A DNA stretch of 64,000 nucleotides from Parcubacteria group bacterium Gr01-1014_8 (GCA_007376385.1 VMGC01000002.1:1-64000); one strand, 5' to 3'; shown: positions 7,152-58,518, numbered from the stretch's first letter. The notes: generated by a model not told the origin, from the letters alone. Numbers and translations are program-made.

Positions 7152-7183
7152 CGCGCCGCACTCATTCGAGCGTTTATTAACTC

Positions 7184-7189: not shown

Positions 7190-7197
7190 GATGAGTA

Positions 7198-9678
7198 ATG
7201 CGAAACGCGCGCGTCGCGGTTCCTTTGTTCGTAGCAACTATTTTGTGCTGCGCTCTCTTTGTTTTTGTACTTCTTTTCGCACAATCGAGTGAAAGTGCAA
7301 CGCCGCCGGCGGGTTCACCGGTGAATTGCGACGAACCGTACCGGACGTGTATAGCAGCGGCCGATCAAAAGTACGACGTACCGATGTCTACAACAGAAGC
7401 GGACAAGGCAGAGTGCCTAAACCGATGGAAGCTATGCATTACGAAAGACGCCGCATGCCAGTCTACGTTCAAAAGAAACACCGGGGGAAACTGCAGCACA
7501 AAACCGCAATGCAGGCATTGCAAGAACGTGATAACCGACAGCGAGGTGCGCTGCTGCTTTGAGCTGACGCATGGACCAGACGAAGAAAATTCGTGTGCAA
7601 CGAGTTTTGGCGGAAAATGCTATCACGCGGATAGAACATTGAGAAAGCCCCCTCCTTTTCTCGTAGGCTCAAACGATGTGGCGCGCATCATTTGTCCGGA
7701 CTGCATACGAATAGTGAATACCGATGGAAATGTTGTTGCCGTTCACCCGAGTACCCCCGCGCCGCCGAATTTCCAAAGTGTGGACAGCCCGCTCACTACA
7801 ATGGGCGATTTGGCTGCGAGAATTTCGGGCGAGAATGGATTGCCGCCCAACGAACTTCCCATGCAAATTGCACGAGAATACTTCGACTTCAAAAGTCTGA
7901 CTAGTGAGGGCGGATATCTTGACGTAAATACGGGCGAAGAGTATACGGATAGGGCAACAGATCTGGGAAAGACCTTACAGTTCCTGCAAGACAATGCGAC
8001 ATCACTTGACCCGCCAAAGCGTGAAGAGCCGCCTGATGATGGTGCAAATAAGGATACGCCTTGGGAAAAAGACGTCGGGTACAAGGCTGATGACACAAAA
8101 GCTAGCGAAGCGTTGGCGAAAGCGGCTGAACGCGAGCGAGCGGCGGAGCTTCAACGATGGAAAGAGCTCGGGGCCAAGGAAATAGAGGCGCAAAAAAGGG
8201 CAGAGGCCGATGAAGCCAAACGCCGGACAGAGCCGCCGTCTCTTTTGGAGCGCTCGAAGTATGACCTCGAGAAATTCCTGCGCACTGCAGGAATCAAGTC
8301 AACCCTCATTCCTCAAGGTGAGCCTGATGTACCGACGGTTCGTCCGATGTTTCCAACGTCAGCCGATGCTCCAGACCCGAACACAACCGCCGAATCGCGT
8401 TTCGCAGCAGTGCGAGATGCGGCGGAACAGTTTGATAAGTCTTCGAAGGAGCTTAGCGTGCTCCGTGCAGAACACGCAGATAATTATTATGATAAGGATT
8501 TTCGCGACCCGAGACTTCTGTATGCCGAAGAAGTAAATCGTGCCGACCGTGAAAGATTGGCTGCAGCGCTGGGAGCTGCGAAACAAGATCTCCCGCAACC
8601 GCTTGCGGAAAAGCTCGCGGCGCTTGAAAAGATGCACGATGATGCTCGAGCGCGGACAGAGGAAGTGAGAACAGGTTTCGAAAGAGCTACCGCAAATTTT
8701 CAAACGTGGGCAGAACAGAATGGCAAAACCACCCTGGGACATAAAGCAGATACTGATGCATTGTGGCATCGGGAAATACCAAAAGGCGCCGGCTCAAACA
8801 TATTTAACGATTGGTTTCCTGTTTGGATGCAAACGACACAAAGTCCGCAGCGAGAATATAGTGACGTGCGAACATATGACCGAGCGCAGGGGGAAATGTC
8901 CTCGGCAATTCAACGTGCGGAGACCGTCGAGCGTAATGCTGCGGCAGAGATACTTACTATCTTTGCTTCGGCTCCGCCGCCTCCCGTTGTAGCAGCAGCC
9001 GAGCCGAAGGCTTTAGAACCCACGGTGGTTATAGGAGCGGGACTGCCGACGGTTCTGCCATCGGGTCCGCCCCCCGCGCCAGATGATACAGCTGCTCCTC
9101 CTGTGCGACCGCCATCAGAGGACGGACCTGCAGGGCCTCCCTCTAAAACAACGCCGGGAGACGATCCTCCTCCGCCTTCTAAAGCGGCTCCTACGCCGCC
9201 CCCCGCACCCCCTCCGAACGGCCCAGGTCCTTTTCCGTTTCCGACCTACACTGACGGAAATGATAACGGTCAGCAAAACGGTGAAGAAAACAGCGGTGGC
9301 TTCGGTTCCGTTTTTGAGTACTTGAAAAAGGTGCTTGGTTTTGGTACTCCTCCTCAGAATAGTTCGCCTCCTCAACCTCCACCGACTGACCAGAAGACTG
9401 GTCCGGGTTCACAGCCTTACCTCGGTGCGCCGAAAGCAGTTGTCACCTTGATAGTAAGTCCAATAGTCGTTTCCGCTGGGCGTTCAGCGTATGTTTCGTG
9501 GTCAAGTATCAATACGAAAGAATGTGATGTGGGATCTGACGGAAAATTGCTTTCGGACAACAGCACGGACGGGATAGTCACCATCAAAAAGATAAAGACC
9601 TCGACAACTGTTCGCATCTCATGCGTGGTAGAAGGAAGGGACCCGATAACTGCAGAAAAAAAGATCACCGTCGAGTAA
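7198..9678 (+). CDS. secreted Cys-rich/Pro-rich surface protein (paralog family A) with C-terminal beta-sandwich-like domain
   Basis: 826-aa ORF. It has a signal peptide (VPLFVATILCCALFVFVLLFA). The N-terminal Cys-rich module is homologous to that of the 10031 gene. The C-terminal domain is homologous to the C-terminus of the 3843 gene. Confidence 0.8.
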   Translation: MRNARVAVPLFVATILCCALFVFVLLFAQSSESATPPAGSPVNCDEPYRTCIAAADQKYDVPMSTTEADKAECLNRWKLCITKDAACQSTFKRNTGGNCSTKPQCRHCKNVITDSEVRCCFELTHGPDEENSCATSFGGKCYHADRTLRKPPPFLVGSNDVARIICPDCIRIVNTDGNVVAVHPSTPAPPNFQSVDSPLTTMGDLAARISGENGLPPNELPMQIAREYFDFKSLTSEGGYLDVNTGEEYTDRATDLGKTLQFLQDNATSLDPPKREEPPDDGANKDTPWEKDVGYKADDTKASEALAKAAERERAAELQRWKELGAKEIEAQKRAEADEAKRRTEPPSLLERSKYDLEKFLRTAGIKSTLIPQGEPDVPTVRPMFPTSADAPDPNTTAESRFAAVRDAAEQFDKSSKELSVLRAEHADNYYDKDFRDPRLLYAEEVNRADRERLAAALGAAKQDLPQPLAEKLAALEKMHDDARARTEEVRTGFERATANFQTWAEQNGKTTLGHKADTDALWHREIPKGAGSNIFNDWFPVWMQTTQSPQREYSDVRTYDRAQGEMSSAIQRAETVERNAAAEILTIFASAPPPPVVAAAEPKALEPTVVIGAGLPTVLPSGPPPAPDDTAAPPVRPPSEDGPAGPPSKTTPGDDPPPPSKAAPTPPPAPPPNGPGPFPFPTYTDGNDNGQQNGEENSGGFGSVFEYLKKVLGFGTPPQNSSPPQPPPTDQKTGPGSQPYLGAPKAVVTLIVSPIVVSAGRSAYVSWSSINTKECDVGSDGKLLSDNSTDGIVTIKKIKTSTTVRISCVVEGRDPITAEKKITVE

Positions 9679-9685: not shown

Positions 9686-9702
9686 TTTTGAACAGTTGTT
9701 CG
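9686..9702 (+). promoter_or_regulatory. second copy of TTTTGAACAGTTGTTCG motif
   Basis: Identical to 7135..7151. Here it is separated from the TATAAT by the inserted 277-bp TIR element. Confidence 0.45.
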
Positions 9703-9734
9703 AATACAGGCCCCGTTTGAGACGGTATTCGCTC

Positions 9735-10021
9735 TATAACCCCGTGAGATAGTTACGCACTATTTTTAATGCGCGTCTTTATATATCGTTTGCCCCAAGC
9801 AGTTTTAAGATATTTTTCTCGAATGTGCGCGTCCTTAATCGAGGTGGATGCCTCGTAGTAAACAAGTTGCCACGGACCCCTATTTTTTGTTGAGAATACT
9901 TTGTTGCTGTTATGAAGATTGAATCTTCGGCGTAAATTATTCGTAGAGCCCACATAAAACTGCTTGGGGCCACGAATTACATACACATAGTACATGTACC
10001 TAATTATCTCACGGGGTATAA
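9735..10021 (-). mobile_element. TIR-bounded mini-element carrying only a GIY-YIG nuclease gene (TIR CCCCGTGAGATA / TATCTCACGGGG; 5-bp TSD TATAA)
   Basis: The left TIR core is at 9740..9751 and the right TIR core at 10005..10016. TATAA flanks both sides (9735..9739 and 10017..10021). The paralogous empty site at 7181..7210 contains a single TATAA. Confidence 0.6.
9753..9995 (-). CDS. GIY-YIG nuclease family protein (stand-alone URI domain, approx. 80 aa)
   Basis: MYYVYVIRGPKQFYVGSTNNLRRRFNLHN... shows the GIY-YIG signature (YVY..FYVG/YIG, R, H/N). It occupies almost the whole interior of the TIR element. The stop codon abuts the left TIR. Confidence 0.85.
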   Translation of the reverse strand: MYYVYVIRGPKQFYVGSTNNLRRRFNLHNSNKVFSTKNRGPWQLVYYEASTSIKDAHIREKYLKTAWGKRYIKTRIKNSA

Positions 10022-10030
10022 TGATGAGTA

Positions 10031-13000
10031 ATGCGAAACGCGCATGTCGCAGGTGTTTTGTTTGTAATTCTTGCAGCTACTATCTGCAGTGCTGCATTCA
10101 TAGCTCTCGGTTCATCATTTGTGCCTACTGCATCTGCACAAAGTGGACAGGGTAATTGCAAGACGCAATACGATGCGTGTATAAAGGCCGCGAATTCCGC
10201 TGCTGCGAAAGCACAGACCTCTGCGCAAGTACAACAGGCTGCGAAGGATAAAGCATCATGCATGCCGAAGTGGCGCACGTGCATGAACAAATGTAAGCAG
10301 CTTACGAAAGGTGCAGACGGTGCTTCGAGCTGTTCGACGGATAGTGAATGCAAAGGAAAACGCTGCAAGGATACCTATAACGATCTAACGAAAGAGAGAA
10401 AGTGTTGCGTAAATCTTTATGACCTCGGAAAAGAATCGCAAAATTCGTGCCCGAATGAAGTTACCTCTAGTGTAGGGCTGCGATGTTATGAAGATGCTGC
10501 GGCGCCTCATGACCCGACAAAAGGGGGAACGCCTGGGGGCACGCCATCTACGCCAGGCGGACAGCCGGAACAACCTTCGGGAGGAATGCCGCAAATTCCG
10601 CAACCGTCGCCGGGAGAAGGCTCACCGCCGAAAGAGCAACCCAAAGAAGAACCGACGCCAGAGCCGAAAAAGGAACCGACATTGTTTGAGAAATTCGCTC
10701 AGTATCTTGGAGGAGATACACCGAAGACAGATGATGCAAAATCACCGCTCGATTATTTCTTCAAGAAAGATGAGGTTGAGCTTGGTTCAACACCCGCTGA
10801 TACTTTAGGAAAGGATTTCCCCGATGCATCGGACAAATGGTGGAATGATGCTGTTGGGCAAAGCACATTCGGTGCGCCCGAAAATTCAGTAGTAACCACA
10901 GACCAGAGTAATTGGGAGCAATTCAAAGAACATATAGCAAATGGAGATATTGTCGCAGCGGGTGGAGATGTCATTGATGGCGCAAAAAATGTGCTTGGTC
11001 TAGGCGATGAAGTGGCTGCAGAGATTCCAGGCGATACAAAAACACTGACTGATGAAACTCCTGACGTGCCAAAAGAGGGACAACAATATGCTGAAGCAAA
11101 ACCCGGTGCCGCCCCGGAAAAACCGACGTCAGATTTAAGTAAAGAGGAGCAAAAGGCAATCACGGAAAAATCCCTGAAAGATACTGAAGCGAAGATCGCC
11201 GCTACCAACAAGGATCTTCAGAATCCCAATCTTGACGAAGCATCAAAAGAAGCACTTCGGGAAAATCTGAAGGACCTTCAATCGCAGCAAGCGGATCTTA
11301 AAAAGGAAATAAACGATCTCGCTAATCCTCCTGAGGCGATACGGAACAAAGCCATCATGGGTGAAGGTGCGCTAAGTGAACACCAACTGCCGTATGACGC
11401 CGAACCAGGGGGGAGAAAAGTATACGTTGAAACAGATGGACCGAACGGAAAGCATATCGTCGAAGTGGACTCGAAAACGGCGGGGACCGATGCCAATGGG
11501 AAGCCTACGACCCTGGGCGATATCGCCCAAGCAAATGGCGCCGGAAATTCGCCGACAAATCCGCTGCCGATGGATGCAGTGCGGTCAGCGGTGGGTGGAG
11601 ATGAAGGACTGAAGGCAATGACAACTCCTACTATAGAGAAGACAGGCGAGGCTCTTACATACAACCGGCCAGTCGGTCCTAATGATCAGGCAACTCTTGA
11701 TGTTAAAGTCGAAAAAAGTCCGGTCAGCAATTTATATGAAGTCAATCAAGATCCGCTGAAAGTCGCTTCGGAAGGGTATCAAGAGGGAGAGGGCAAAGTG
11801 GTGAACGAGGGCAAATTCCTTTTTGGTGAGGGAGCAAAACCACCACCCGCAGGGGAGCCACCTACAGCGGCGTCTCCGCCACCGCCTGCGGAATCTGAAA
11901 AAAGTGACGCATCAGTCGCACGCTCCCCGAATACGCCCGAAGAATATGCAAAAGCCGCCGAAGAAGCGATCAAGCGATCGATGGTAAATCTGGGGAATGG
12001 TTTTGCAAATGTCGTCGATGCCGCAAGAGAAGGAATTAGTAATGCTGCTGTTGAAGTTCAAAAATGGGCGCACGAGGCGAAACAAGCGGCAGCAGATGCA
12101 TACAATTATGTTGCCGGCACAATAGAAGATATACGTCCCGCAGGAAATCCTACAGACGTACAAGCGCCCTCCCCCGGGCCGGTGGCGCAGCAGCCGAGTC
12201 CATCGCCGGGCGATAATCCAGGCGGAGGCACTGTTGTACCTGATACACAAGGAACCATTCCTATAAAAGCGCCCACTGGTCCCGGAGATCAAAATCCTCC
12301 GGTTAAGTCTGGGGACGGATCGACTGATGGAGGAAAAACGGAACCAACGATTACTCCCACGGATAAACCTGGCAAAGACATAGACGCGCCTGTTCCTGAT
12401 CCGCAAGGGAAAACAAAACAACCGACAACGCCGAGTCCGGAAGGAAAGGAGCAGACGGTACCACAGCCTGCGCCGCCAAGCTCTCCTCCAAATCGGGGTT
12501 GGTTTAAAAGAATCGCCGATGCGCTCCGTGGTTTTCCGATTCCCGGTCCCTCACCTTCGCCGACAAATATCTCACCGTCCGTATTTCAACCGCAGCCACA
12601 AGGTCAAGATCAAAAGCAGGCCCCGCAGCCAACGCCTTCAGAAAAGAAAGGTCAACCGGAACCGGATCCGAAAGGGACCGCAAAAAGTAATTTTGCTCCG
12701 AAAACAAAAAATAACCTCCAGGAGTTTTTGGCAGATGCGCTCAAAAAATTCGCAGATGGAATTGCGAAGCGAACAGGTCAAGATCCTGGAGAAACTCCAG
12801 GAGGACAAGGTCCGAGCAAGACCGCGAAAGATAACGATCCGAATAAACCCCTTGGGAACAGCTTGGAGAATCCGAAGCAAGTGAAAGATGGAATTCCTGC
12901 GAAGAGCAATACCGGCGAAGCTGGAACCGGCAAAGGTCAGGAGGGAAAGCAGCAACAGCAGAAGGGAGCAAAAGACCAGGAAGGGCAGAAAAAAGGAGAC

Positions 13001-16000
13001 GATGGGAAGCAGGGAGTGCCATCTGGCACGCCAAGCAATACACCTGCGCCCCCTGACTTACCGCGACCGAATATGGTCGCGAAATTACAGGTACCGACTC
13101 CTGTAGCTTCGAATGACCCAAAGGGAAAAACCATCGAGGCTCAAAGCAAAGAGAATGTCCAAACACAGCCTGGCGATAGCGGGCAAGGGCAGGGACAGCC
13201 CAAAGGTGGAGGCAAATCTCTGCTTGAGAAACCGAGTTCTGAAAAAGTCGAAAACGCAACGCCGAGCCCGAGTCCTACCAGAGGTTTCCTTGCGAAGCTT
13301 CCAAATCCGCTTGTATCAATTCCAGGAAAAATAGTAGGCGTGAGTGCGCCTGACGGCGATGCAGTGCCAAGTCCGGCAGGCGATGTGATGCGAACGTCGG
13401 ATGGGCGGCTCAAAACACCGAGTATTTCTGGACGTTCATTGGAAGGACAGCCTGTCAAAGCCGTTGGAGATGCGAAGAAACTACTGCCGACTCTCATCTC
13501 GACGAGAGCTGAAGATGTGCGAGATTTTGTGAGAGGAAGCGGGGTCAGAACTCGGTTCGGTATCAAAGATTGTGCGGCAGCCCCTACTGGCTGGGTTTGT
13601 CAGAACTTAGGAGACATAGCGCAAAGGCAAGGATGTTCGCCTGGGGACCATTCGTGTTGGCAATCTGACGTTGCTGATGCGGAGGCATATTGGGCAAAGC
13701 TTCTCATGCAGCCAAATTACACGCGATGTCAGCCACTGACCGTGCAATGCATTATTAGCGGTCCTGATGGGAGAGGCAATTGGGTCGCCGATGATTCTGC
13801 ATGGAGACGTGCGCAAGGATTAGGCGGTACAGGCTCTAACGCTGACCATGTTGGCAGAGTCATCAGATTCATGGCCGAGAAAGGAGTAAATGTCCAGGGG
13901 AACACGCCTCTCGATCTGAATGATGCGAATGTGAGAAGGGCGTTGGCTTACGGTCAATCAAGAGCCGAACTTAGGGCAGGCGAGAGCGCATATGACGATA
14001 GCGTGATTGATACGGGTTATGAACGCGCTGTTGCGCGCGCTGGCGGAGCACCCCCGCCGCCAATTGTGCCGTCCACACCACCTGCGGCGATTCCGGTGCA
14101 ATCAACGCACGCGCAAGCTTTGCAAAAATATCAAGATGCATTGGCCTGCAAGGGCAATGAGTGTAGACAGCAGAAGATAGATGTTCGAAATCCCCAAGGT
14201 GTGTCGCCAGAGCTGGCGGAGCAAATAAAGCAGCGACATAGCACCGCTCCACAAAAACCTGGGTATGGTACGGAAGTGAACAAGGCGACTGTCATAGCCG
14301 ACCTTGCTGCGTGCGAGGCGATGGGGGGCGGCTGTGGCAGATTATCTTCGTCGGCCCGTTCGCCAGGACAGACGAGGCATGGTCCGGGAGATGCGATTGA
14401 CGTCACGTTCACCGACCCACAAACGCAAGGCACATATGCAGCGCTTTTCATGAACGGCGCCCATGCACTCGGGGCAACTCCTGGCATGGGTTTCAATACA
14501 GAATGCAGCACGGGTTGCATCGTACATGCAGACACGGTAGGCGCGAGTGCCGGACCTGGGGCAGCGAACGCGTGGGCCTATGGTCCTAACTGCGGAAGCG
14601 GAAGCAGCGACTGCATAAAAAATATAGTCGACCCACGGGTTCGTTCAATTGCGAATCTCGCGTATGCGGGGCAGCCGGTTCCTAATAACCTTGTTCCAGA
14701 ATCTATTACACCAGGGACTACGGTTCCAGGGGGGACACCCGCGAGTCAGGTTGTCCGTGGCCCACATGTTCCCGGTTCCGAGCCGGGCATTGTTCCGGGA
14801 AAGGAAGAAGCCAGCAGGTCGCCGGAGGAACAAAAGAAATTAGACGACGATGCGGCACGTGAAAAGCCAAGCCCCTCGGCCACAAAGTCTCCGCCTGGTC
14901 TCACTGGTGACGTTGCAAAAGACGCTGTAAATAAATTCTCACACGATCTTGGGCAAAGGGGATTTGTCTTTGGAAAGGACAGTAAGCTCCTCACGCCACA
15001 GGAAGCAGCAGAGCTATTCAAGAAAGGAGAAAAGCCGGATATCTATCTACCTCGCGACAAAGGTCCGAATCCATTTGCGAGCCCGGAGCAAAAAGCACAA
15101 TTTACGAAAGCTCCAAACGGGCAACATTATGAAAAATTCGAAGGGACTTTTGATGAGTATCGTCAGCGTCTGACGCAAGAATTAACAGCAGCCATTGAAA
15201 ATGCGATGCGTGACCAGCAGCTCAATTCGAAACCGGAGACGGAGAAACTTCGGGATGGAGGAAAACTTGTAACGAAGGGTGAGGGCCAGATACGCAATGT
15301 GTTTCGAGAAAAAGACGGAAAACTAAGTGACAAGCCTGTCGGTCAGGTGCGCGAGATAAGCAAAGAATTTGCGCAACTTCGAAAGGCAGTAGAACTGCAA
15401 GGCGACAAAGTGAAAGTGAAAGAAAAAAATGGACAGTTCAAAACAGAAGATGGAAGACGCGTCGAATTGCGTCCTGATACCGGCAAGGATGCGCCGCCGC
15501 CGTGCACTGATTTTACAAAATGTCATACGGGCGGAAAGATAGAGAATGGAAGATTTGTCGGAGCAGATGGTTCTAACATCGTGAATATACCGGGTGTTGG
15601 ACGCGTAAGATTTGAGCACAATCCATTCAGCCCGAATGCAGGAACGCAACGCGGAAATATGAGTGCGCTCGTCATCCATGAATTCAGAAACCCAGGCGGC
15701 GCAAGGAATGTTGATAGTACGGTGAGATGCCATCAGAACGGTTGCCGAGGAGGAGGCGTATATACGCAAGCGTATGTAAGCCAGCCCTATATTGCAGAGG
15801 ATGGAATGAAGGAAATACGCGTAGTTCAGCTCGGTTCGGCGTACGAGCGCAGTGGCCACGCGGGCTCGACACCGCTTGGCAGCCAGCCGGGACCCGGAAT
15901 AGAGAATGCGTGTCACGGAAGAGGAGATTGCAGTGATCCTCTGCAGATTGCGGCGAACGCTATTATGTATGACGCCTATCGTCAGCAATATCCGAATATG

Positions 16001-17200
16001 GCCGTGACGCATCACCAAGGGGATGAAGGTTTGCCTATTGCGCGTGCACTGTACGCACGCGTACAGGGCGGTTTGCAGGGTTCACTATCAGATGAGCCAG
16101 TCGCACTTTTCGCAGTATCGGAAAATGGAGATGCCGAGAAACTGGGCACCAGCATGAAGCCATCTGAACTTCCAGCGGCCGGCGGTACCGAATTCGAAAG
16201 TGTAGGGGACAATGGAAACCCAAATGGAGATGTCCGTATCGAACTTGATCCCATCAAGATAGGCACAGCAGACGTTCAGCCGACAATAGAAGGCGACAAA
16301 CTCGGTTTTGTCCCGACCTATACGCCGCCACCTCCTCCGCCCGCTCCACCGCCTCCTCCATCTTTTAGACAGAGAATGGCAGAAGCAGCGCGACGCCAAT
16401 TGGACAATTTGTCGAACGCGATGAAAAAAATGATGCAGCCGCCTAGCGGGGGCGGTGGAGGACAGCCGCAACCTCAACCGCAGCCACCTGTGCCACCTCC
16501 GCCTCCAATTCCACCAACATCGACAACGGGCGAGCCGAAAATAACCTGTACACCGACCGCTGCGATCGCGGATCAAAAAGTGAGAATTAAATGGTCGTGC
16601 CCTCCAACCCAGCTAGCAGTCGGCGTCGGCTTCGAGACCAAAGGTTTGGCGAATAGCGAAGTAGAAGTGCGCGTATCGAATGATAAGACACTATCGGAAG
16701 CGAAATATTCACTTCGCTGCGGAACGCTTCCGGAGCGTTCATGCACGGTGAAGATAGTCCGCCCGGCTATACTTATGATCGCCCAGCCTGGCGAAGTAGG
16801 ATCTGGGAAGACAACGAATCTAGCATGGGCGGCGACTCAAGTCCGAGTCTGCAAGATATACGACCCCGCATGCAAGGTTGTAGGTTCCGGTAATTCGGGT
16901 GGCAGAATAAAAACGAAAGCTCTGACTCGTTCAAGTACTTTCATGCTCGGCTGTGAGACAATTACAGGCGCAATGACCACGTCATCTGTTGTCGTAAAAG
17001 TGAAAGGAGATACGAAGGAACCACTTCCTGCGTGTCCGGCGGAAAGCATCCAACATGATGTTGTATTTACGACGAGCAGCTTGAACACTAAAAGTACTCC
17101 AACAGCCTACCCAGTACCATCTTCCAGCGGGTCCACAGAGCTGTGCAGTCCAAATCTTGATTTCGATTCTTTTATCAGATGTGTGATGGGTAAGAAGTAA
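10031..17200 (+). CDS. giant (2389 aa) secreted Cys-rich/Pro-rich surface protein (paralog family A) with two C-terminal beta-sandwich-like repeats
   Basis: It has a signal peptide. The N-terminal Cys-rich module is homologous to that of the 7198 gene. It contains long low-complexity P/G/Q/K-rich regions. A mid-region motif SPGQTRHGPGDAIDV resembles the HxxGxAxD zinc motif of peptidase M15/LAS enzymes (low confidence). The C-terminal domains show the VxxGxxxxxxW..C pattern. Confidence 0.85.
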   Translation: MRNAHVAGVLFVILAATICSAAFIALGSSFVPTASAQSGQGNCKTQYDACIKAANSAAAKAQTSAQVQQAAKDKASCMPKWRTCMNKCKQLTKGADGASSCSTDSECKGKRCKDTYNDLTKERKCCVNLYDLGKESQNSCPNEVTSSVGLRCYEDAAAPHDPTKGGTPGGTPSTPGGQPEQPSGGMPQIPQPSPGEGSPPKEQPKEEPTPEPKKEPTLFEKFAQYLGGDTPKTDDAKSPLDYFFKKDEVELGSTPADTLGKDFPDASDKWWNDAVGQSTFGAPENSVVTTDQSNWEQFKEHIANGDIVAAGGDVIDGAKNVLGLGDEVAAEIPGDTKTLTDETPDVPKEGQQYAEAKPGAAPEKPTSDLSKEEQKAITEKSLKDTEAKIAATNKDLQNPNLDEASKEALRENLKDLQSQQADLKKEINDLANPPEAIRNKAIMGEGALSEHQLPYDAEPGGRKVYVETDGPNGKHIVEVDSKTAGTDANGKPTTLGDIAQANGAGNSPTNPLPMDAVRSAVGGDEGLKAMTTPTIEKTGEALTYNRPVGPNDQATLDVKVEKSPVSNLYEVNQDPLKVASEGYQEGEGKVVNEGKFLFGEGAKPPPAGEPPTAASPPPPAESEKSDASVARSPNTPEEYAKAAEEAIKRSMVNLGNGFANVVDAAREGISNAAVEVQKWAHEAKQAAADAYNYVAGTIEDIRPAGNPTDVQAPSPGPVAQQPSPSPGDNPGGGTVVPDTQGTIPIKAPTGPGDQNPPVKSGDGSTDGGKTEPTITPTDKPGKDIDAPVPDPQGKTKQPTTPSPEGKEQTVPQPAPPSSPPNRGWFKRIADALRGFPIPGPSPSPTNISPSVFQPQPQGQDQKQAPQPTPSEKKGQPEPDPKGTAKSNFAPKTKNNLQEFLADALKKFADGIAKRTGQDPGETPGGQGPSKTAKDNDPNKPLGNSLENPKQVKDGIPAKSNTGEAGTGKGQEGKQQQQKGAKDQEGQKKGDDGKQGVPSGTPSNTPAPPDLPRPNMVAKLQVPTPVASNDPKGKTIEAQSKENVQTQPGDSGQGQGQPKGGGKSLLEKPSSEKVENATPSPSPTRGFLAKLPNPLVSIPGKIVGVSAPDGDAVPSPAGDVMRTSDGRLKTPSISGRSLEGQPVKAVGDAKKLLPTLISTRAEDVRDFVRGSGVRTRFGIKDCAAAPTGWVCQNLGDIAQRQGCSPGDHSCWQSDVADAEAYWAKLLMQPNYTRCQPLTVQCIISGPDGRGNWVADDSAWRRAQGLGGTGSNADHVGRVIRFMAEKGVNVQGNTPLDLNDANVRRALAYGQSRAELRAGESAYDDSVIDTGYERAVARAGGAPPPPIVPSTPPAAIPVQSTHAQALQKYQDALACKGNECRQQKIDVRNPQGVSPELAEQIKQRHSTAPQKPGYGTEVNKATVIADLAACEAMGGGCGRLSSSARSPGQTRHGPGDAIDVTFTDPQTQGTYAALFMNGAHALGATPGMGFNTECSTGCIVHADTVGASAGPGAANAWAYGPNCGSGSSDCIKNIVDPRVRSIANLAYAGQPVPNNLVPESITPGTTVPGGTPASQVVRGPHVPGSEPGIVPGKEEASRSPEEQKKLDDDAAREKPSPSATKSPPGLTGDVAKDAVNKFSHDLGQRGFVFGKDSKLLTPQEAAELFKKGEKPDIYLPRDKGPNPFASPEQKAQFTKAPNGQHYEKFEGTFDEYRQRLTQELTAAIENAMRDQQLNSKPETEKLRDGGKLVTKGEGQIRNVFREKDGKLSDKPVGQVREISKEFAQLRKAVELQGDKVKVKEKNGQFKTEDGRRVELRPDTGKDAPPPCTDFTKCHTGGKIENGRFVGADGSNIVNIPGVGRVRFEHNPFSPNAGTQRGNMSALVIHEFRNPGGARNVDSTVRCHQNGCRGGGVYTQAYVSQPYIAEDGMKEIRVVQLGSAYERSGHAGSTPLGSQPGPGIENACHGRGDCSDPLQIAANAIMYDAYRQQYPNMAVTHHQGDEGLPIARALYARVQGGLQGSLSDEPVALFAVSENGDAEKLGTSMKPSELPAAGGTEFESVGDNGNPNGDVRIELDPIKIGTADVQPTIEGDKLGFVPTYTPPPPPPAPPPPPSFRQRMAEAARRQLDNLSNAMKKMMQPPSGGGGGQPQPQPQPPVPPPPPIPPTSTTGEPKITCTPTAAIADQKVRIKWSCPPTQLAVGVGFETKGLANSEVEVRVSNDKTLSEAKYSLRCGTLPERSCTVKIVRPAILMIAQPGEVGSGKTTNLAWAATQVRVCKIYDPACKVVGSGNSGGRIKTKALTRSSTFMLGCETITGAMTTSSVVVKVKGDTKEPLPACPAESIQHDVVFTTSSLNTKSTPTAYPVPSSSGSTELCSPNLDFDSFIRCVMGKK

Positions 17201-26383: not shown

Positions 26384-26838
26384 CTGCGCTGGGTAGTCGC
26401 CCCGTGAGATAATTGCTCAGATATGTACTACGTGTACGTGCTTTGGGGCAAGGGGTATCTGAAGTTGCGTATCAAACATAGGGAGTAACTATCTCACGGG
26501 GAGGAAAGTCCGGGCACAGGCCCTTTTTGGGCAGCAGGGTAGCGGGTAACGCCCGTACGCCGCAAGGCGAGAGGTGCGAACAGAGACGCTTCCGACGAAA
26601 GGTAGGAAGCATCTCCGAAGGTCGAAAGGCTCTTGGAGACGAGCTCTTCAGGCGACTGGAGAGGTGCAACGGCAAAATCCTTACTTCTGTGCAAGACCGT
26701 GTCCAGTTGGGGTTTTATTCAATTGATAAAACTTCATCTGGAAGAGTCGCTAGAGGTGAGCGGTAACGCTCATCCTAAGATAAATGACTGCACATTCCGT
26801 CTTAGACGGAAGGACAGAACCCGGCTTATAGGCGCAGC
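26384..26838 (+). ncRNA. rnpB: RNase P RNA (bacterial type A-like)
   Basis: It contains the conserved CR-I AGGAAAGTCCGGGC (26501-26514) and CR-V ACAGAACCCGGCTTA (26815-26829). The ends are approximate. Candidate P1/P2 pairing is CTGCGC (26384-26389) with GCGCAG (26832-26837). Confidence 0.75.
26400..26501 (+). mobile_element. copy of the CCCCGTGAGATA/TATCTCACGGGG TIR element (102 bp, no ORF, no TSD) at the RNase P RNA P3 position
   Basis: The TIR cores are at 26400..26411 and 26490..26501. The right TIR abuts AGGAAAGTCCGGGC. Confidence 0.55.
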
Positions 26839-27240
26839 GAAATGAGCGAGGCGAAAAAGCCTCGCTTTTTCGTATCCGAATGAGCAAGCCTAGGAGCGTA
26901 GCGATATAGACGCAGACAGACAGGCGAAGCAGAAATGCTTCGCTTTTCTGCTTCGGAGCAAACGTTAGATCCAGCGAAATGAGCGACCAATTTTTGTTGG
27001 CCGCAGACGTTACAAAAATGGGAGTGCCCCTGTGGTGCGAAACGAAAAAGCTTTGCTTTTTCATTTCCGAATGAGCAAGCTTATATGAGCCTTGGCGAAT
27101 TGAGGCGCAGCGCAGCGAGCAACGCAAACGAGTGTTGCTCGTTTGCGTTTGAACCAGCAAGTTTGGGAGCGTAGCGATATAGCACGCAACAAAAAAGTCA
27201 GCTCGGAAGGCCTCACCTCTTCTTTTTTTCGTATGTTAAA
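26836..27240 (+). repeat. hairpin-rich degenerate tandem repeat region
   Basis: These units repeat: GCGAAATGAGCGA (26837, 26953); CGAAAAAGCYTYGCTTTTTC..TCCGAATGAGCAAGC (26852, 27047); GGAGCGTAGCGATATAG (26893, 27164). There are several 9-10 bp stem hairpins. Confidence 0.6.
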
Positions 27241-29603: not shown

Positions 29604-31340
29604 GTGACGTCGGTCCAGAATAATTCCGCTATGATAGGAACGCTTAGAAGAGGACTCTCAATCACAGGCCGCGCGTTTGAGTTCCTTTCGCGTGAGGTTC
29701 GAGGGATGCATGCTGCAGCGTACATTCTCGGTTTTTCATCTCTTCTGTCGTCGCTGCTTGCACTTCTAAGAGACCGACTTCTTGCGCACACGTTCGGCGC
29801 GGGAATAGAACTCGACCTCTATTATGCAGCGTTCCGCATTCCTGACCTTTTGTTTGTCGCCATCGGCGCGCTCGTGTCCGCGTATGTGCTTATTCCGGTC
29901 CTCGCAACGCGAGACGAGACGGGTCAGCACCGATATATTGACGCCGTCGTCGTCGGATTTTCGATACTTGCTATAAGTGCAAGCGCACTGGCTGCGCTTG
30001 CAGCGCCCTGGCTTCTCGGTTGGTTCTTTCCATCGCTCGCGGCCGGCGCGACGTTTCCGACACTCATACTGCTCACCCGGATCTTATTGCTTCAGCCGAT
30101 ATTTCTAGGTTTCTCGAATATTCTTGCTGCAGTAACGCAGTCACGGCATCGATACGCACTCTATGCGGCCGCGCCCATCGTGTATAACGTCGGCATCATC
30201 TTGGGCATAATTCTTCTATATCCATTTTTTGGTCTCGCTGGTGTCGCGTGGGGTGTCGTCTTAGGCGCGCTCTTGCATGCGCTCATCCAAGTTCCATCCG
30301 TGATCCGCGATGGTTTTTTACGAGTTGAACCCCTCCGAGCGGAGCTGTGGGTCATTTTCGATACCGTTCGAATTTCTTTTCCGCGGGCGCTCGCACTTTC
30401 GATGAATCAGCTTGCTTTCCTAGGTTTGCTCATTATAGCGAGTTCTCTTACAACTGGTTCCATTTCTATTTTTATGTTTGCCTTCAACTTGCAGGCCGTC
30501 CCTCTCGCGATAATTGGCGCATCATACTCTGTCGCGGCGTTTCCGACGCTGGCAACGCTCTCTCGCAACGGTTCGGATGAATTCATGTCCTATGTTGCGA
30601 CAGCTGCACGGCACGTGTTGTTCTGGTCAATGCCGGTCCTGATGCTCATCATTGTCCTTAGGGCGCACGTCGTTCGCGTTGTCTTGGGGTCGGGGGAGTT
30701 CAACTGGATCGACACAAGGCTGACCGCTGCGGCACTCGCTCTATTCGCGATATCTCTTGCGGCACAGGGAATTATGCTGCTTCTTGTTCGCGCATATTAT
30801 GCTTCAGGCAAAACACTGGTCCCGCTCGTGGTTTCGGGGGCGAGCGCTCTCGCTGCTATCCTTCTCGGTCTTTTATTCCTTGGGGCATTTGATGACCCGA
30901 GTGCTCTTACATTCATTGAAGCATTGCTTCGGGTTGAATTCATACGAGGGACAGAGATCCTTGCGCTTCCGCTTGCGTATTCAATGGCATCACTGCTTGG
31001 GATAGTCATACTTGCCATTCACTTTGAGTTTTCCAACAGGGGTTTTTTTGTGTCTGTCGGTCGAGCGTTCGGTGAGAGTATTACTGCAGCGTTCGTGGGC
31101 GCAGTTGCGGCATATGGGACACTTGTTGTTCTCGGTACAGTAACATTTTCCTCGACACTCGCATCGGTCTTGATGCGGGGAGGGGTTGCCGGCCTTGTAG
31201 GCTTGCTCGCAACTGCGATCGCGTACGCGCTTCTCGGAAGCCGCGAATTTTCAGAAACAGTGCAATCGCTTTCCCGTCGAGTCTGGCGCAATGTTGAACC
31301 AGTATCATCTGCTGAAGCGACAGATGTATCGAGAGCGTAA
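29604..31340 (+). CDS. murJ: lipid II flippase MurJ (MviN)
   Basis: 578-aa polytopic membrane protein. LLALLRDRLLAHTFGAGIELDLYYAAFRIPDLLF matches the MurJ N-terminal signature. The true start may be a downstream Met. Confidence 0.85.
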   Translation: MTSVQNNSAMIGTLRRGLSITGRAFEFLSREVRGMHAAAYILGFSSLLSSLLALLRDRLLAHTFGAGIELDLYYAAFRIPDLLFVAIGALVSAYVLIPVLATRDETGQHRYIDAVVVGFSILAISASALAALAAPWLLGWFFPSLAAGATFPTLILLTRILLLQPIFLGFSNILAAVTQSRHRYALYAAAPIVYNVGIILGIILLYPFFGLAGVAWGVVLGALLHALIQVPSVIRDGFLRVEPLRAELWVIFDTVRISFPRALALSMNQLAFLGLLIIASSLTTGSISIFMFAFNLQAVPLAIIGASYSVAAFPTLATLSRNGSDEFMSYVATAARHVLFWSMPVLMLIIVLRAHVVRVVLGSGEFNWIDTRLTAAALALFAISLAAQGIMLLLVRAYYASGKTLVPLVVSGASALAAILLGLLFLGAFDDPSALTFIEALLRVEFIRGTEILALPLAYSMASLLGIVILAIHFEFSNRGFFVSVGRAFGESITAAFVGAVAAYGTLVVLGTVTFSSTLASVLMRGGVAGLVGLLATAIAYALLGSREFSETVQSLSRRVWRNVEPVSSAEATDVSRA

Positions 31341-31393
31341 TGCTGTAGCGATGATGCCACTCATGGGGTATAACCTGTGTGGGACTCACACAT

Positions 31394-31427
31394 ATGAACA
31401 TTCGAAACTTTTCCATCATTGCGCACC
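31394..31427 (+). repeat. decayed duplicate #1 of the lepA 5' end (encodes MNIRNFSIIAH)
   Basis: ATGAACATTCGAAACTTTTCCATCATTGCGCAC compared with the real start ATGGCAAACATAAGAAATTTTTCGATAATAGCGCAC. Confidence 0.7.
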
Positions 31428-31454
31428 CCAGTACCACGACGCTTCGCGTCGGCT

Positions 31455-31494
31455 ACCTGCCTGCGCCGAGGCGTCGGCAGGCAGGCGGGGGCAT
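31455..31494 (+). repeat. GC-rich REP-like palindrome
   Basis: cctgcctgcgccgaggcgtcggcaggcagg. The outer 9 bp are perfectly complementary. It is related to the palindromes at about 55925-55951 and 57310-57336. Confidence 0.6.
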
Positions 31495-31506
31495 GCATTG
31501 ACCACT

Positions 31507-31538
31507 ATGAGTATTAGGAATTTTTCCATAATTGCACC
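31507..31538 (+). repeat. decayed duplicate #2 of the lepA 5' end (encodes MSIRNFSIIAP)
   Basis: ATGAGTATTAGGAATTTTTCCATAATTGCACC. Confidence 0.7.
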
Positions 31539-31719
31539 TATCGTCGCCGCAACCGCGGCTCCTTGGAGAACAATGATGTGGGGCATCATTGTTCCGGTTT
31601 CCTGCGGGTTTTTCCAGGGCGGGAAAACTTCTGAAAAGCTCCTTTACCCGCTTTTCAGTCCCTCGCCCTTTCGAACAATGTGTGCACAACATGCGATTGT
31701 ATTTCCACTTAGCTAGTCT

Positions 31720-33501
31720 ATGGCAAACATAAGAAATTTTTCGATAATAGCGCACATTGATCACGGGAAAAGTACTCTTGCCGACAGGATGCTCGAATTG
31801 ACCGGTACCATTGAGGCGCGGCGAATGCAGGACCAGGTTCTGGACAAAATGGACCTAGAGCGCGAACGAGGCATTACCATCAAAATGGCGCCGGTGCGCA
31901 TGCAGTGGAAAAAGGATTCTACGGACTTTGTGCTTAATCTCATAGACACGCCTGGGCACGTGGACTTTTCGTATGAGGTGTCCAGAGCGCTTACGGCAGT
32001 CGAAGGCGTTATTTTGCTCGTTGATGCGACGCAGGGGGTGGAAGCTCAAACACTGTCCGTACTTGCTGTCGCGAAGCAGTTGGGGCGCGTTATCATTCCG
32101 GTCGTATCGAAGATAGATGCTCCACATGCACGCAGAGCCGACATTACGACGGAGCTCGCCATGCTTCTTGGCATCGAAGAATCGCAGGTACTAGGATGTT
32201 CGGGTAAAACGGGGGAGGGCGTTGTAGAGCTTCTCGATGCAGTTGTGGCTCGGATACCTCCACCGCAAACGATAGGTATTGGAGCGCAGGGTTTGATATT
32301 TGATTTCGGATATTCAGACCACCGCGGCATTATCGTGTATCTGCGCATCTTTGGAGGACAATTCAAAAAAGGAGATTATTTGCGCTTTGTCGCTGCGGAC
32401 GCGGATTTCATAGCGCTTGAGGTCGGTGTATTAACACCTGGCGAGACGCCCCGCGAATCGTTAGGCGAAGGGGAGATAGGCTACATCGTGACAGGAATAA
32501 AAAAGCCTGGCATAGCGTCTGTTGGTGACACCATCACGCAAGCAAAACGCCCTGCAGAGGCACTGCATGGCTACCAGGCGCCTACTCCGGTTATATGGGC
32601 GAGCGTGTACCCTGAATCGCAAGATGACCTTACCATGCTGCGTCAGTCGCTCGATAAATTGAAGTTGTCGGATTCGTCGCTTTCGTACGAAGAGGAATCA
32701 TCCGGCGTGATGGGCCGAGGGTTCCGCTGCGGTTTTTTAGGGATGCTCCATTTGGAGATAATCATCGAGCGCCTTAAACGCGAATTTAATATGGCGCTTG
32801 TAGTAACGCAGCCAACGACAGTGTATGAAATAACGAAGATGAACGGGAATGTAGAGGAAATATATGCGCCAGCGAAGTTTCCCGATGATGGGACGACAAA
32901 GTTAGTGCGGGAAAAATGGGCGAGCGTGACCATACTCACGCCGCCTTCGTATATCGGAAGCATTTCGCAGCTCCTGTATGACCATGAAGCTTCCGTGGGA
33001 CATACTGAAACGCTGCCGGATGGCAAAGTCGAACTTCATTCGGAAATGCCATTGCGGGAGCTGATGCGGGGTTTTTTTGATAAGTTGAAAAGCGCGTCGT
33101 CAGGATTTGCGTCGCTATCCTACGAAATACTGGGCCTTCGCGAGGCGAATGTTGTCAGACTCGATGTGTTGGTGGCGGAGGAAATGGTCCCTGCTTTCTC
33201 GCGCATTGTATCAAAGCGGCGTATCAATACCGAAGCAGAAACTCTCGTAGATAAGCTTGAAGAGCTTTTGCCCCGACAATTGTTCGAGTTAAAGATCCAA
33301 GCGAAGGCAAAAGGGAGGATCATTGCTTCGCGTCGTAAATCGGCGATGCGAAAAGATGTGACGGGTTATCTGTATGGCGGGGACATCACACGAAAGATGA
33401 AATTGTTGGAAAAACAGAAAAAAGGGAAGAAGAAAATGCTTGCACGCGGTAAGGTGGACATTCCAAACGAGGTCTTTTTAAAGGTCGTAAGAGAAAGCTA
33501 G
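31720..33501 (+). CDS. lepA: translation elongation factor 4 (LepA)
   Basis: 593-aa ORF with a GTPase domain (NFSIIAHIDHGKSTL, DTPGHVDF) and LepA-specific C-terminal domains. Confidence 0.95.
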   Translation: MANIRNFSIIAHIDHGKSTLADRMLELTGTIEARRMQDQVLDKMDLERERGITIKMAPVRMQWKKDSTDFVLNLIDTPGHVDFSYEVSRALTAVEGVILLVDATQGVEAQTLSVLAVAKQLGRVIIPVVSKIDAPHARRADITTELAMLLGIEESQVLGCSGKTGEGVVELLDAVVARIPPPQTIGIGAQGLIFDFGYSDHRGIIVYLRIFGGQFKKGDYLRFVAADADFIALEVGVLTPGETPRESLGEGEIGYIVTGIKKPGIASVGDTITQAKRPAEALHGYQAPTPVIWASVYPESQDDLTMLRQSLDKLKLSDSSLSYEEESSGVMGRGFRCGFLGMLHLEIIIERLKREFNMALVVTQPTTVYEITKMNGNVEEIYAPAKFPDDGTTKLVREKWASVTILTPPSYIGSISQLLYDHEASVGHTETLPDGKVELHSEMPLRELMRGFFDKLKSASSGFASLSYEILGLREANVVRLDVLVAEEMVPAFSRIVSKRRINTEAETLVDKLEELLPRQLFELKIQAKAKGRIIASRRKSAMRKDVTGYLYGGDITRKMKLLEKQKKGKKKMLARGKVDIPNEVFLKVVRES

Positions 33502-34051: not shown

Positions 34052-34306
34052 GGACGCTCGATGACCATACTTCTTTCGGGCACGTGATTTTCCTGCTAGA
34101 AAATCACTCAAATCCTCGCCCGTCGGCTGCGGGGTCCCTCCAGAAGTATGGCCACGCTCGCTTAGAGTAGTCAATGCAAAAAAAGTCTTACATTTGGCGG
34201 CAAAACAACTTATAGTTACATCAGTAAGCTCTGGATTAGTATAGAAGTTAAGGAATCCGTTTTGCGGGCGTAGTTTAGTGGCTCTGTTTTGGATTGCGGC
34301 CGGTGT

Positions 34307-34378
34307 GCGGGATTGGTTCAGTGGTAGAACGACTGCTTCCCAAGCAGTAGACACGAGTTCAATTCTCGTATCCCGCAC
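34307..34378 (+). tRNA. tRNA-Gly (anticodon CCC)
   Basis: Acceptor GCGGGAT/ATCCCGC, D-arm GTTCAGTGGTAGAAC, anticodon loop TTCCCAA, T-arm ACGAGTTCAATTCTCGT. Confidence 0.85.
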
Positions 34379-34534
34379 AGCGACCGCAAAAAATGAAAAG
34401 CTCCTTAAACCGCTTTTCATTCCCTCGCATTAGAAAGGGGTTCGATTCCCCTCGCCCGCACAAAAAATGTCCACAGGGCGCTTAACCAAGGCGTGGTATA
34501 CTGTCTTTCCTTATAAATAATTGTCTGTAACGTT

Positions 34535-35517: not shown

Positions 35518-35758
35518 AGCGCGAGCTTCACTTTTAAGAACCCACGGTTCTCAACGCTCGCTCTGCTCACTGCTCTCCTCCTCGGGAAAACTACAGTTTT
35601 CCCGACCCCTTTCGAACTCGCTTTACCTTATTCAAGGCTAAGAACATAGATGGCAAGCGAGGTAGATGGTATAGTGCCTCACGCGCCTGGATATATGTGT
35701 ATCCAGTCGTCGCTCGGAGAAAATGCAAAAGCGAGCTTCCGCATTTTGCTCCTTGTTA

Positions 35759-35832
35759 GCCTGGATAGCTCAGGTAGTCAGAGCATTCCCCTGAAGAGGG
35801 AAGGGTGGTCAGTGCAAGTCTGACTCCAGGCA
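35759..35832 (+). tRNA. tRNA-Phe (anticodon GAA)
   Basis: Acceptor GCCTGGA/TCCAGGC, D-arm GCTCAGGTAGTCAGAGC, anticodon loop CTGAAGA. The T-loop is unusual (TGCAAGT). Confidence 0.75.
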
Positions 35833-35836
35833 CAAT

Positions 35837-41983: not shown

Positions 41984-42086
41984 TATACCCCATGAGATAA
42001 ATACATTGAAATTAACCGGGCAACTCGAATATATCTACACAAAAGATAACTGCAAAAAACACCACATGACTATCTCACGGGGTATA
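41984..42086 (+). mobile_element. ORF-less copy of the CCCC(A/G)TGAGATA/TATCTCACGGGG TIR element (95 bp) with 4-bp TSD TATA
   Basis: TIR cores at 41988..41999 and 42071..42082. TATA is at 41984..41987 and 42083..42086. The right end sits 9 bp upstream of the ABC transporter ATG and creates a TATACT -10-like box. Confidence 0.6.
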
Positions 42087-42094
42087 CTTGTCCA

Positions 42095-55747: not shown

Positions 55748-55876
55748 TATGACCCCGTAACGAAATGTGCCTTAGGCTTGAACATCATATGAAAACAAAT
55801 CACCAAAACGGACAAATCAACAAAGTCGAACTTTATCTGTCGAGGATAGCAAGCGAAATGCGAAAGCGCAGGTTTC

Positions 55877-58019: not shown

Positions 58020-58044
58020 CTTCTCACGACAGGCGCTTGTAACC

Positions 58045-58503: not shown

Positions 58504-58518
58504 AGAGAGATACTCGGC

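Follow-up and report, generated by a model that had tools for sequence, protein, structure and literature searches.

We describe here the boundary between murJ and lepA (the gene for EF4) in a window of 64,000 nt, the whole stretch of DNA that was analysed, taken from the metagenome-assembled Parcubacteria group bacterium Gr01-1014_8 (GCA_007376385.1, VMGC01000002.1:1-64000), a Kaiserbacteria-like member of the Candidate Phyla Radiation (CPR). Between murJ and the functional lepA start lie two further copies of the lepA 5' end, here termed orphan copies A and B (the working start being copy C), which are interspersed with palindromic DNA. The features of this stack, in window coordinates, are as follows:

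29604..31340, + strand: murJ (Pfam MurJ, E = 7e-51); murJ-lepA synteny is also seen in loci L002-L004 and L085
31360..31374, + strand: promoter-like motif CTCATGGGGTATAAC upstream of copy A, with a -10 box TATAAC at 31369-31374; matches the repeated motif TCTCAYGGGGTATAMT
31394..31425, + strand: left part of orphan copy A, encoding M N I R N F S I I A plus two bases of a His codon (ATG...GCG CA), recognised from the sequence and from the starts of relatives
31426..31495, no strand assigned: class I palindromic element CCCCAGTACCACGACGCTTCGCGTCGGCTAC...GGGGGCATG, 70 nt, splitting the His codon of copy A; the layout recurs in 13 other unique units
31456..31485, no strand assigned: nested second palindrome CCTGCCTGCGCCGAGGCGTCGGCAGGCAGG, 30 nt, within the class I element; other members run from ..GGCTAC straight into GGGGCA
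31496..31505, + strand: resumed codons of orphan A, read from the sequence as C (third base of His) followed by ATTGACCAC (I-D-H, 31497-31505)
31507..31537, + strand: orphan copy B ATGAGTATTAGGAATTTTTCCATAATTGCAC, M S I R N F S I I A, opening a 69-codon upstream open reading frame (ORF)
31538..31719, + strand: spacer 2, with palindromes at 31568-31594 (GAACAATGATG..CATCATTGTTC) and 31632-31666 (shared with the tRNA-Gly region); z = -3.1
31720..33501, + strand: functional lepA (EF4), 593 aa, start MANIRNFSIIAHIDHGKST; 100% identical to the Logan protein and 91% to Kaiserbacteria EF4

The LepA protein read from 31720-33501 is that of Gr01-1014_8, the deposited record of which starts 23 residues late. 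An independent Logan assembly of SRR8863434 (L001; L numbers denote the loci and contigs compared here) carries the same lepA and is base-for-base identical over 31250-31800, its sample possibly being shared with the window. A preliminary description of this DNA had reported three lepA-start-like sequences, and their similarity proves to be far beyond chance: a six-frame scan of the window for RNF[SAC]I[IV]A finds three sites only, all on the + strand and within 340 nt, and codon degeneracy gives a probability of ~5e-11 per position for I/R/N/F/S/I/I/A, so that two extra copies within ~330 nt cannot be due to chance. Copies A (ATGAACATTCGAAACTTTTCCATCATTGCGCAC at 31394-31426, with an in-frame GTG upstream at 31379) and C both encode IRNFSIIAH, and copy B encodes IRNFSIIA, its His codon having been lost. 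The duplicated segment spans the ATG through the I-D-H codons (~45 nt). The same description had placed a hairpin insert after copy A; instead, the 70-nt element interrupts copy A within its His codon, and lepA codons resume beyond it (the class I layout being GCN CA, CCCC..GGGGCARG, then Y ATH GAY CAY), with the ATG of copy B beginning one base past the resumed I-D-H codons.

The DNA between successive copies amounts to 80 nt and 182 nt. The initial 30 nt of the first of these spacers belong to the class I element and match L145 at 93% and L089 at 90% identity; a relative of the nested palindrome is found at L130:6747-6778, with similar ones in the window at 55924-55952 and 57314-57342. The palindromes reported earlier in both spacers are present, as is a 35-nt repeat near tRNA-Gly, which spans 34394-34428 and matches 31632-31666 with 3 mismatches (0 of 100 shuffles equal this). 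BLAST of spacer 2 against all fetched loci returned that tRNA-Gly-side palindrome as its sole match, a protein search with the 69-aa peptide of the copy B ORF gave no homologue, and a 141-aa ORF spanning the stack has no Pfam match. A search of 31300-31800 against Rfam yielded one chance-level match only (E = 3), and the whole window at gathering score yielded tRNAs only; Rfam searches of the focal 500 nt and of L014 likewise identified no family, an AsrC hit being lepA sequence.

Comparison of the murJ-lepA interval among relatives, which the preliminary description had proposed as a check, reveals a single start and no upstream ORF. In L002 (GCA_016217965), L003 and L004, where LepA is 91% identical and the murJ-lepA order is kept, one start, ATGAAYATYCGAAAYTTYTC (MNIRNFSIIAH), lies 48-66 nt past the murJ stop. 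Copy A starts 53 nt past the murJ stop and its peptide is exactly MNIRNFSIIAH, and the MANIRNF N-terminus of copy C is missing from the 120 closest LepA proteins. The motif TCTCAYGGGGTATAMT elsewhere ends 5-8 nt before ATGs (e.g. 10031 and 42095). Given its distance from murJ, its peptide and the -10 motif before it, copy A is the native lepA start, orphaned by ~326 extra bases. Occurrences of the TCTCAYGGGGTATAMT motif are at 10004-10026, 42070-42092, 58003-58025 and 61079-61101, in addition to that at 31360-31374.

Stacks of this kind recur beyond the window. In a species-level survey, 80 Parcubacteria species-representative loci were fetched with LepA, 78 of which keep the lepA 5' end, and extra upstream copies were found in two of these 78: L048, in which exact 35-nt repeats surround a 72-nt insert, and L014, which has three lepA start copies and a duplication of 80-90 nt that includes the promoter, as in L097. 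Metagenomes were scanned for a full lepA start preceded, at a distance of 65-95 nt, by an orphan N-F-[STC]-I-I-A segment. This pattern was matched by 58 contigs, which together with L001, L014 and L048 give a set of 64 unique units at 54 loci. Most units have a period of 88-114 nt, between two and four of them occur in some contigs, and the material between copies measures only 30-184 nt in more than 60 units. Breakpoints are recurrent: 25 units break off past the first His codon and 23 past I-D-H. A class I element splits His as CA|Y, with lepA codons resuming, in 14 unique units (including that of the window), and the class I layout is also seen at a second site, in three units. With U standing for the DNA upstream, o for an orphan, X and Y for two distinct cassettes and R for the real gene, L128 reads U-o-X-R, L094 reads U-o-Y-R and L090 reads U-o-X-o-Y-R; the occurrence of X only, Y only and X plus Y in related contigs indicates that units are modular and are gained or lost between close relatives. 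Visibly decaying orphans are seen in L092, L100, L105 and L107.

The duplicates in the window had been called decayed, a description that does not fit them: besides the ancestral status of A and the peptide that A shares with C, the differences among the three copies (5-6 per pair over the 24 positions of eight shared codons, with at least eight substitutions) are all synonymous, against an expectation of only ~25% for random changes in these codons. Likewise, copies 2 and 3 of L014 differ at nine nucleotides over 13 codons, always synonymously. Across 51 unique pairs of orphan and real copies, the two codons that the search pattern leaves unforced (Ile/Val and Arg) are identical in 37 cases, synonymous in 57 and nonsynonymous in eight, where random change would give ~27% synonymous, and about half of the pattern-forced codons differ at the third position. 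This synonymous bias implies that orphan and working copies diverged under protein-level constraint, so that either the copies stem from different working alleles or the orphans stay constrained. The fraction of identical codons between copies (~0.33-0.5) resembles that between the window lepA and its closest relatives over the whole gene (~0.4), and synonymous-only divergence at this species level rules out neutral decay of a target-site duplication.

The frames that open at the orphans also end in a non-random manner. That of copy A reaches TGA at 31499-31501 (in a shifted frame), 5 nt before the ATG of copy B at 31507, and that of copy B crosses three further palindromes over its 69 codons and stops with TAG at 31714-31716, 3 nt before the lepA ATG at 31720. 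Orphan frames end within 20 nt on either side of the next ATG in 59 of 64 units, compared with 41 of 128 alternative frames, likewise opened at the junction (Fisher p = 2e-16, a value that is optimistic given the phylogenetic non-independence of the units, the effect itself being large), and 94% of orphan frames remain open to position -20, compared with 53% of alternative frames and 59% of shuffles. A consensus scan detected no sigma-70-like promoter or intrinsic terminator before copies B or C. Shine-Dalgarno-like motifs are rare in the window, being present in only ~4 of 46 long genes, whereas a -10 box 11-16 nt ahead of the ATG is found in many; judging from these motifs, leaderless or coupled initiation seems to predominate in this genome. 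It had been suggested that the copies could be decoy initiation sites. They are probable initiation sites, and the element of diversion in that suggestion is not borne out, since their stops adjoin the next ATG, which points to delivery to lepA.

Upstream ORFs that drive translation of a main ORF by termination-reinitiation or coupling represent a general bacterial mechanism, with examples in PMC13285730 and PMC8092293. In such cases the upstream stop lies within a few nt of the main start or overlaps it, and the main start has no Shine-Dalgarno motif; in the window, too, an open frame stops next to the main start. The lepA stack differs in that its upstream ORFs are former starts of the same gene, chained two deep, behind a leaderless-like promoter.

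Two classes of palindrome are associated with the orphans. Class I has the form CCCC(A)GTA, a variable stem-loop, then TACGGGGCARG, and interrupts a His or Asp codon before its third base, after which lepA codons resume and the next ATG follows 1-14 nt on. Class II runs from GAYCA into a hairpin of CCCGCC..GGCGGG type, then CGAGAC(T/A), ~25 AT-rich bases (often holding a -10-like box) and ATG; contigs with class II units encode LepA proteins just 50-65% identical to Parcubacteria references, and two of them (L137 and L140) have a G+C content of 63-64%. In 24 unique class I hairpins (CCCC(A)GTA..TACGGGG) compared with shuffles the median z is -3.8, the feet are conserved, and the interiors are unrelated in sequence yet always complementary. 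Their stems contain 339 Watson-Crick pairs and 5 G-T pairs and fold equally well on both strands, a near-absence of G-T pairs and an equality between strands that a DNA palindrome of the repetitive extragenic palindromic (REP) kind fits better than a selected RNA; an RNA-structure reading of the hairpins is consequently disfavoured. The class I family has one (nested) copy in the window, and over ~1.2 Mb around lepA every copy of the palindrome family lies in an orphaned piece of a conserved gene, with the exception of a tRNA-Arg case in L105. There, at 130-250, class I-type feet (CCCCAGTAGTAAT.. and ..ATAATACGGGGCAAGC) bracket a whole tRNA-Arg gene on the opposite strand, the tRNA apparently being inside the element.

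Such orphaned pieces derive from genes other than lepA as well, and from its other end. The same palindrome family occurs in the first 12-13 nt of tRNA-Phe (L048 and L009) and in a 5'-truncated tRNA-Gly of L102, in each case with an intact copy alongside. Just past the working lepA stop in L002 (~5780-5870) and L004, the sequence reads ..NE, class I palindrome, VFLKVVRES*; this orphan of the last nine lepA codons is only synonymously unlike the working end, and forms a 3' counterpart of the 5' stacks. In L119 (3051-3270) a complete tRNA-Gly(CCC) precedes two tRNA-Gly copies that lack their 5' part and belong to different alleles, joined by a repeated linker, CAAAACTTGCTAGG. Other loci with tRNA-Gly(CCC) and one or two truncated copies of another allele, with compensatory stem differences, are L145 (631-783), L105 (1331-1457) and L084 (6695-7002).

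The preliminary description had likened the lepA stack to the neighbourhood of tRNA-Gly and to a duplication at the groEL tail in the window, and the same kind of phenomenon is indeed found at these places. The tRNA-Gly(CCC) of the window (34307-34378) is of an allele unlike that of relatives, and pieces of the relatives' allele lie on both sides of it (34263-34463): a 5' orphan of 18 nt (GCGGGCGTAGTTTAGTGG, 34263-34280) and a 3' orphan of 36 nt, from anticodon stem to 3' end (34427-34463), which directly abuts the palindrome at 34394-34428. At groEL, an exact 35-nt repeat (2212-2246, ending TAG, and 3087-3121, ending TAA, with a terminator-like hairpin after the TAA) surrounds an 840-nt insert, which contains a 235-aa Y1_Tnp gene (2319-3026) like those of REP-associated tyrosine transposases (RAYTs), flanked by a palindrome, AAAACCATCAAGGCGNCGCCTTGATGGT, at 2273-2303 and 3003-3030. 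RAYT-like Y1 genes are an abundant family in these bacteria, and homologues in L146 and L147 have a related flanking palindrome, CCAGCAAGGCGACGCCTTGCTGG, and no gene-end repeat. As a candidate for the responsible enzyme the RAYT-like Y1 transposase is without support, given that its own palindrome family differs and that L146 and L147 are free of gene-end duplications. A further observation in the window concerns tRNA-Phe (35759-35833), the first 9 nt of which (GCCTGGATA) are repeated 72 nt upstream (region 35687-35833) and followed by two palindromes, CTGGATATATGTGTATCCAG and AAAATGCAAAAGCGAGCTTCCGCATTTT, in a layout like that in L048 and L009.

The best-supported account, to which we give an even chance, is that copies A and B are two former lepA 5' ends, stacked by at least two successive replacements of the first 11-14 codons and kept as a coupled upstream-ORF relay. 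Under this reading the native start A, behind its native promoter, would have been succeeded by copy B as the working start after a first event, and B in turn by the present start C. With each event the P-loop codons would acquire a new ATG-to-His segment immediately before them, the displaced segment being left behind. The resulting arrangement of orphan, palindrome, spacer and new 5' end has lepA homology on both flanks, and homologous recombination, possibly following DNA uptake, could thereby transfer a copy of it to a lepA that is naive or has been invaded before, with the recipient's own 5' end becoming the next orphan. Such recombinational spread would account for the synonymous-only differences, the recurrent breakpoint codons, and stacking with the oldest copy furthest out; candidate drivers are a trans-acting nuclease, a recombinase or uptake-biased recombination. 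We further infer that transcription would proceed from the ancestral promoter, and that ribosomes would initiate at A, read through the palindrome, stop at 31499-31501, restart at 31507, translate 69 codons, stop at 31714-31716 and restart at 31720, in a termination-reinitiation relay. The earlier proposal of repeated insertion events is thus retained in so far as at least two successive palindrome-associated events affected the 5' end, and set aside in so far as each was held to have duplicated ~35 bp of target, the segment being ~45 nt long and the palindrome lying inside A.

Several observations weigh against successive replacement by transfer. Near-identical orphan and real copies in L048, L102, L106 and L125, together with plain tandem arrays that include upstream sequence in L137 and L140, indicate that local duplication makes at least some units. 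In L091, L093 and L109 the palindrome and spacer are better conserved than the coding parts, and the stem contains a compensatory change, a pattern which could reflect functional constraint rather than transfer; clustering of orphan and real copies from these three loci, L102 and L106 gave a slight similarity across positions, too weak to tell transfer from vertical descent. Synonymous sites are saturated even in comparison with the closest relatives, and a mosaic test found no boundary in lepA, leaving the events undatable. The metagenome scan demanded N-F-[STC]-I-I-A in both copies, and so left out decayed orphans, and the units, as noted above, are not independent phylogenetically. No donors of copies B and C or of spacer 2 were found by protein search or by BLAST of the fetched loci. 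No nuclease or recombinase gene lies within or adjoining the units, and the larger inserts of L014, L097 and L085 contain no recognisable mobility gene: that of L014 carries an ORF without a Pfam match, that of L097 a DapB-like fragment (read from the translation by eye), and L085 (2094-3096; also L086 and L087) a 281-aa ORF without a precomputed Pfam domain between murJ and lepA. A remnant, ATAATTGCGCAT (IIAH), also lies in L085, at a distance of 24 nt ahead of the lepA ATG; gene callers join it to the gene and so predict a LepA of 625 aa.

Gene-end replacement with stacked relics is known from other systems; what sets the present units apart is that they measure ~100-200 nt, code for nothing and bear palindromes with conserved feet. 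A search of the full-text literature found work on REP/RAYT systems, WHO elements and arrays of the type VI secretion system (T6SS), and no account of stacked lepA starts or of such palindromes in CPR bacteria. WHO homing elements, which in yeasts of the genera Torulaspora and Lachancea sit at FBA1 (Coughlan et al. 2020, PMC7282813), carry an endonuclease gene, occupy the 3' end and spread meiotically. As at lepA, the end of a conserved universal gene is replaced repeatedly, old ends pile outward so that the most recent lies closest to the intact gene, the fragment provides a homology arm for copying into a naive allele, and the replaced end is mostly silently different. The position furthest from the intact gene is indeed held by the native end in the window, as judged by the position and peptide of copy A, and modular X/Y stacks are seen in L128, L094 and L090. 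Unlike WHO elements, the lepA units measure 90-220 nt, contain a conserved-foot palindrome and no ORF, hence no endonuclease, and affect mainly the 5' end (also tRNAs and the lepA 3' end). WHO elements are the closest known architecture.

A further resemblance is to the T6SS of Vibrio cholerae. In arrays of its genes, incoming modules recombine through conserved neighbouring sequence. According to PMC5361080, orphan immunity genes there accumulate by sequential displacement, with displaced resident pieces retained as ordered relic stacks, as at lepA; the units are whole genes rather than gene ends of 35-50 nt, and neither palindromes nor a role in downstream translation are known to be involved.

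An extension of the replacement reading, which we put forward tentatively and regard as rather unlikely, is that these units are protein-less gene-end replacement cassettes of ~100 nt, each consisting of a palindrome and a spare first or last dozen codons or part of a tRNA, which home into universal genes without lethal effect and spread by uptake and homologous recombination. Their targets in ultra-small bacteria may include lepA, tRNA-Phe, tRNA-Gly and possibly groEL, with the gene itself providing both homology arms, and the palindrome might be the recognition site of a trans-acting nuclease or recombinase, or an uptake signal.

The chief rival, which we consider unlikely, is a selected cis-regulatory leader: local partial tandem duplications (two in the window) would have been kept since the upstream ORF and hairpin regulate lepA translation in an attenuator- or coupling-like fashion, with peptide and stem under purifying selection. 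The open orphan frames that end at the next ATG and the conservation of amino acids despite synonymous divergence are both consistent with this, the young identical duplicates and tandem arrays show that local duplication occurs, and the near-orthologous units of L091, L093 and L109 keep the I-D-H codons, spacer and stem, with one T.A to C.G compensatory change. However, the palindrome family also marks tRNA and lepA 3'-end orphans, where translation is irrelevant, and its stems, almost devoid of G-T pairs and folding alike on both strands, behave as DNA palindromes. Moreover, the element length is often no multiple of three, leaving the peptide beyond the insert unconserved, the presence and number of units vary among close relatives, and the orphans of L092, L100, L105 and L107 are visibly decayed. 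Nor does this reading account for a leader peptide having to copy LepA residues 1-14.

It is distinctly improbable that the stack arose from hairpin transposons resembling miniature inverted-repeat transposable elements or REPs, inserted in the lepA 5' end with target-site duplications of ~35 bp, the upstream copies drifting thereafter. The exact 35-nt repeats round the L048 insert and round the Y1 insert at the groEL tail would fit such a history, as would the RAYT-like Y1 gene in the window and the GTA(G/C) feet of the palindromes, which resemble those of GTAG-type REPs (PMC3733652). Against this, direct repeats should start identical, and saturation-level divergence at synonymous sites only is incompatible with neutral drift. 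Further, the class I palindrome lies inside the orphan rather than between the repeats and has no flanking duplication of its own, duplications range from 13 nt at tRNA-Phe through 33-50 nt at lepA to the 80-90 nt of L014 and L097, and the hairpins that flank Y1 genes belong to another family. To our knowledge, Y1 enzymes of the IS200/IS605 type do not create target duplications, which also counts against this explanation. REP and REPIN palindromes and their RAYT (Y1) transposases (PMC3733652 and PMC2817692) do offer a parallel to the palindromes themselves. The class I hairpins share with them a length of 35-50 nt, near-perfect DNA palindromy, a conserved GTA(G/C) foot of GTAG type and a variable interior, and an abundant RAYT-like family, flanked by hairpins of its own, is present here too. 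They differ in that REPs are high-copy and mostly intergenic, whereas class I palindromes lie in orphaned gene pieces and were found neither as high-copy intergenic repeats nor flanking RAYT genes. We know of no case in which REP insertion is coupled to gene-end duplication.

Very improbable, in our view, is an origin as remnants of integrase-mediated integrations, in which phages or integrative and conjugative elements used the lepA 5' end as attB, supplied a replacement 5' end and promoter, and later lost their bodies to deletion, leaving att-like scars. A replacement gene end that differs synonymously from the displaced one, with breakpoints that recur, is a hallmark of SXT/R391, which enters the 5' end of prfC, and of phage 21 and e14, which enter the 3' end of icd; these elements measure kilobases and have tyrosine integrases as well as defined att cores, and prfC, itself encoding a translational GTPase, is hit near its G1 motif and receives both a new end and a promoter from SXT. 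As at lepA, the end of a conserved gene is targeted, a new end is supplied, the old fragment is left and the differences are largely synonymous; in contrast, the lepA units are tiny, contain no recombinase and stand up to four in tandem. The orphan tRNA-Gly 3' half in the window begins at the anticodon loop, a typical integrase crossover site, and gene-sized inserts do occur between copies in L014 and L097 and between murJ and the IIAH remnant in L085. Nevertheless, independent deletions would not yield more than 60 units with so little material between copies and the same conserved-foot palindromes in the same place, and the young units with identical repeats (L048 and L125) are already tiny. 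Furthermore, no integrase lies nearby, there is no recombinase between copies, and a scan of viral contigs for a lepA/CCCAGTA junction was empty. Finally, that a metagenome assembler mis-joined strain variants of the lepA start is scarcely credible: the window is metagenome-assembled and the copies look like allelic variants, yet the sequence is identical at every base in two assemblies, no k-mer is common to the junctions and lepA or to one junction and the other, contigs of many projects, bearing MEGAHIT-, SPAdes- and JGI-style names (some exceeding 100 kb), have the same layout, and the placement of stop codons is non-random.

Some other repeats and insertions were observed in the course of this work. 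The LepA of L079 (4001-6328) has an in-frame insertion of ~180 aa in its G domain, between VRM.. and LNLIDTPGH, which by eye resembles a small domain of GxxExxY type. In the window, a 69-nt direct repeat with 71% identity (34071-34139 and 58530-58598) has no Rfam match, and its second copy is bracketed by a 22-nt inverted repeat (58518-58539 and 58595-58616). A 54-nt segment upstream of the S21 gene (63358-63411) is found at 96% identity 7.5 kb away (55873-55926), where it abuts a palindrome, GCCTGCCTGTGCGATGCACGCAGACAGGC (to 55952), that appears again at 57314-57342 and is like the one nested in orphan A; the same repeat group also covers 61179-61201. The intergenic region before a TPR gene (26830-27182) contains a cluster of hairpin repeats of an 80-nt and a 47-nt family (GCGAGGCGAAAAAGCCTCGC...CCGAATGAGCAAGCCTA). 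The genes at 7198-9678 and 10031-17200 share a promoter region and first codons (TATAATGATGAGTAATGCGAAACGCGC..; MSNAKRA) over 7135-7233 and 9686-10066, the genes preceding them share the C-terminal codons EGRDPIT, and the two are probably tandem paralogues.

For the reading that former lepA 5' ends were displaced and stacked, the consequences are both practical and biological. Annotation pipelines mis-handle such loci, here depositing a LepA that is 23 residues short and calling a 141-aa ORF across the stack. In streamlined, uncultured bacteria, core genes would be able to renew their 5' ends through replacement instead of point mutation, with relics left behind, and the chain of upstream ORFs would provide a testable reinitiation relay for how organisms poor in Shine-Dalgarno motifs translate a gene that has lost its leaderless position. 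If the units are indeed cassettes, they would form a novel kind of selfish element, or else a novel way for promoters and leaders to turn over, and would set chains of reinitiation ORFs before core genes. If, moreover, such cassettes spread by uptake and recombination, they would constitute a natural marker of gene flow in Patescibacteria, and may lead to an enzyme that recognises CCCC..GGGG-footed palindromes.

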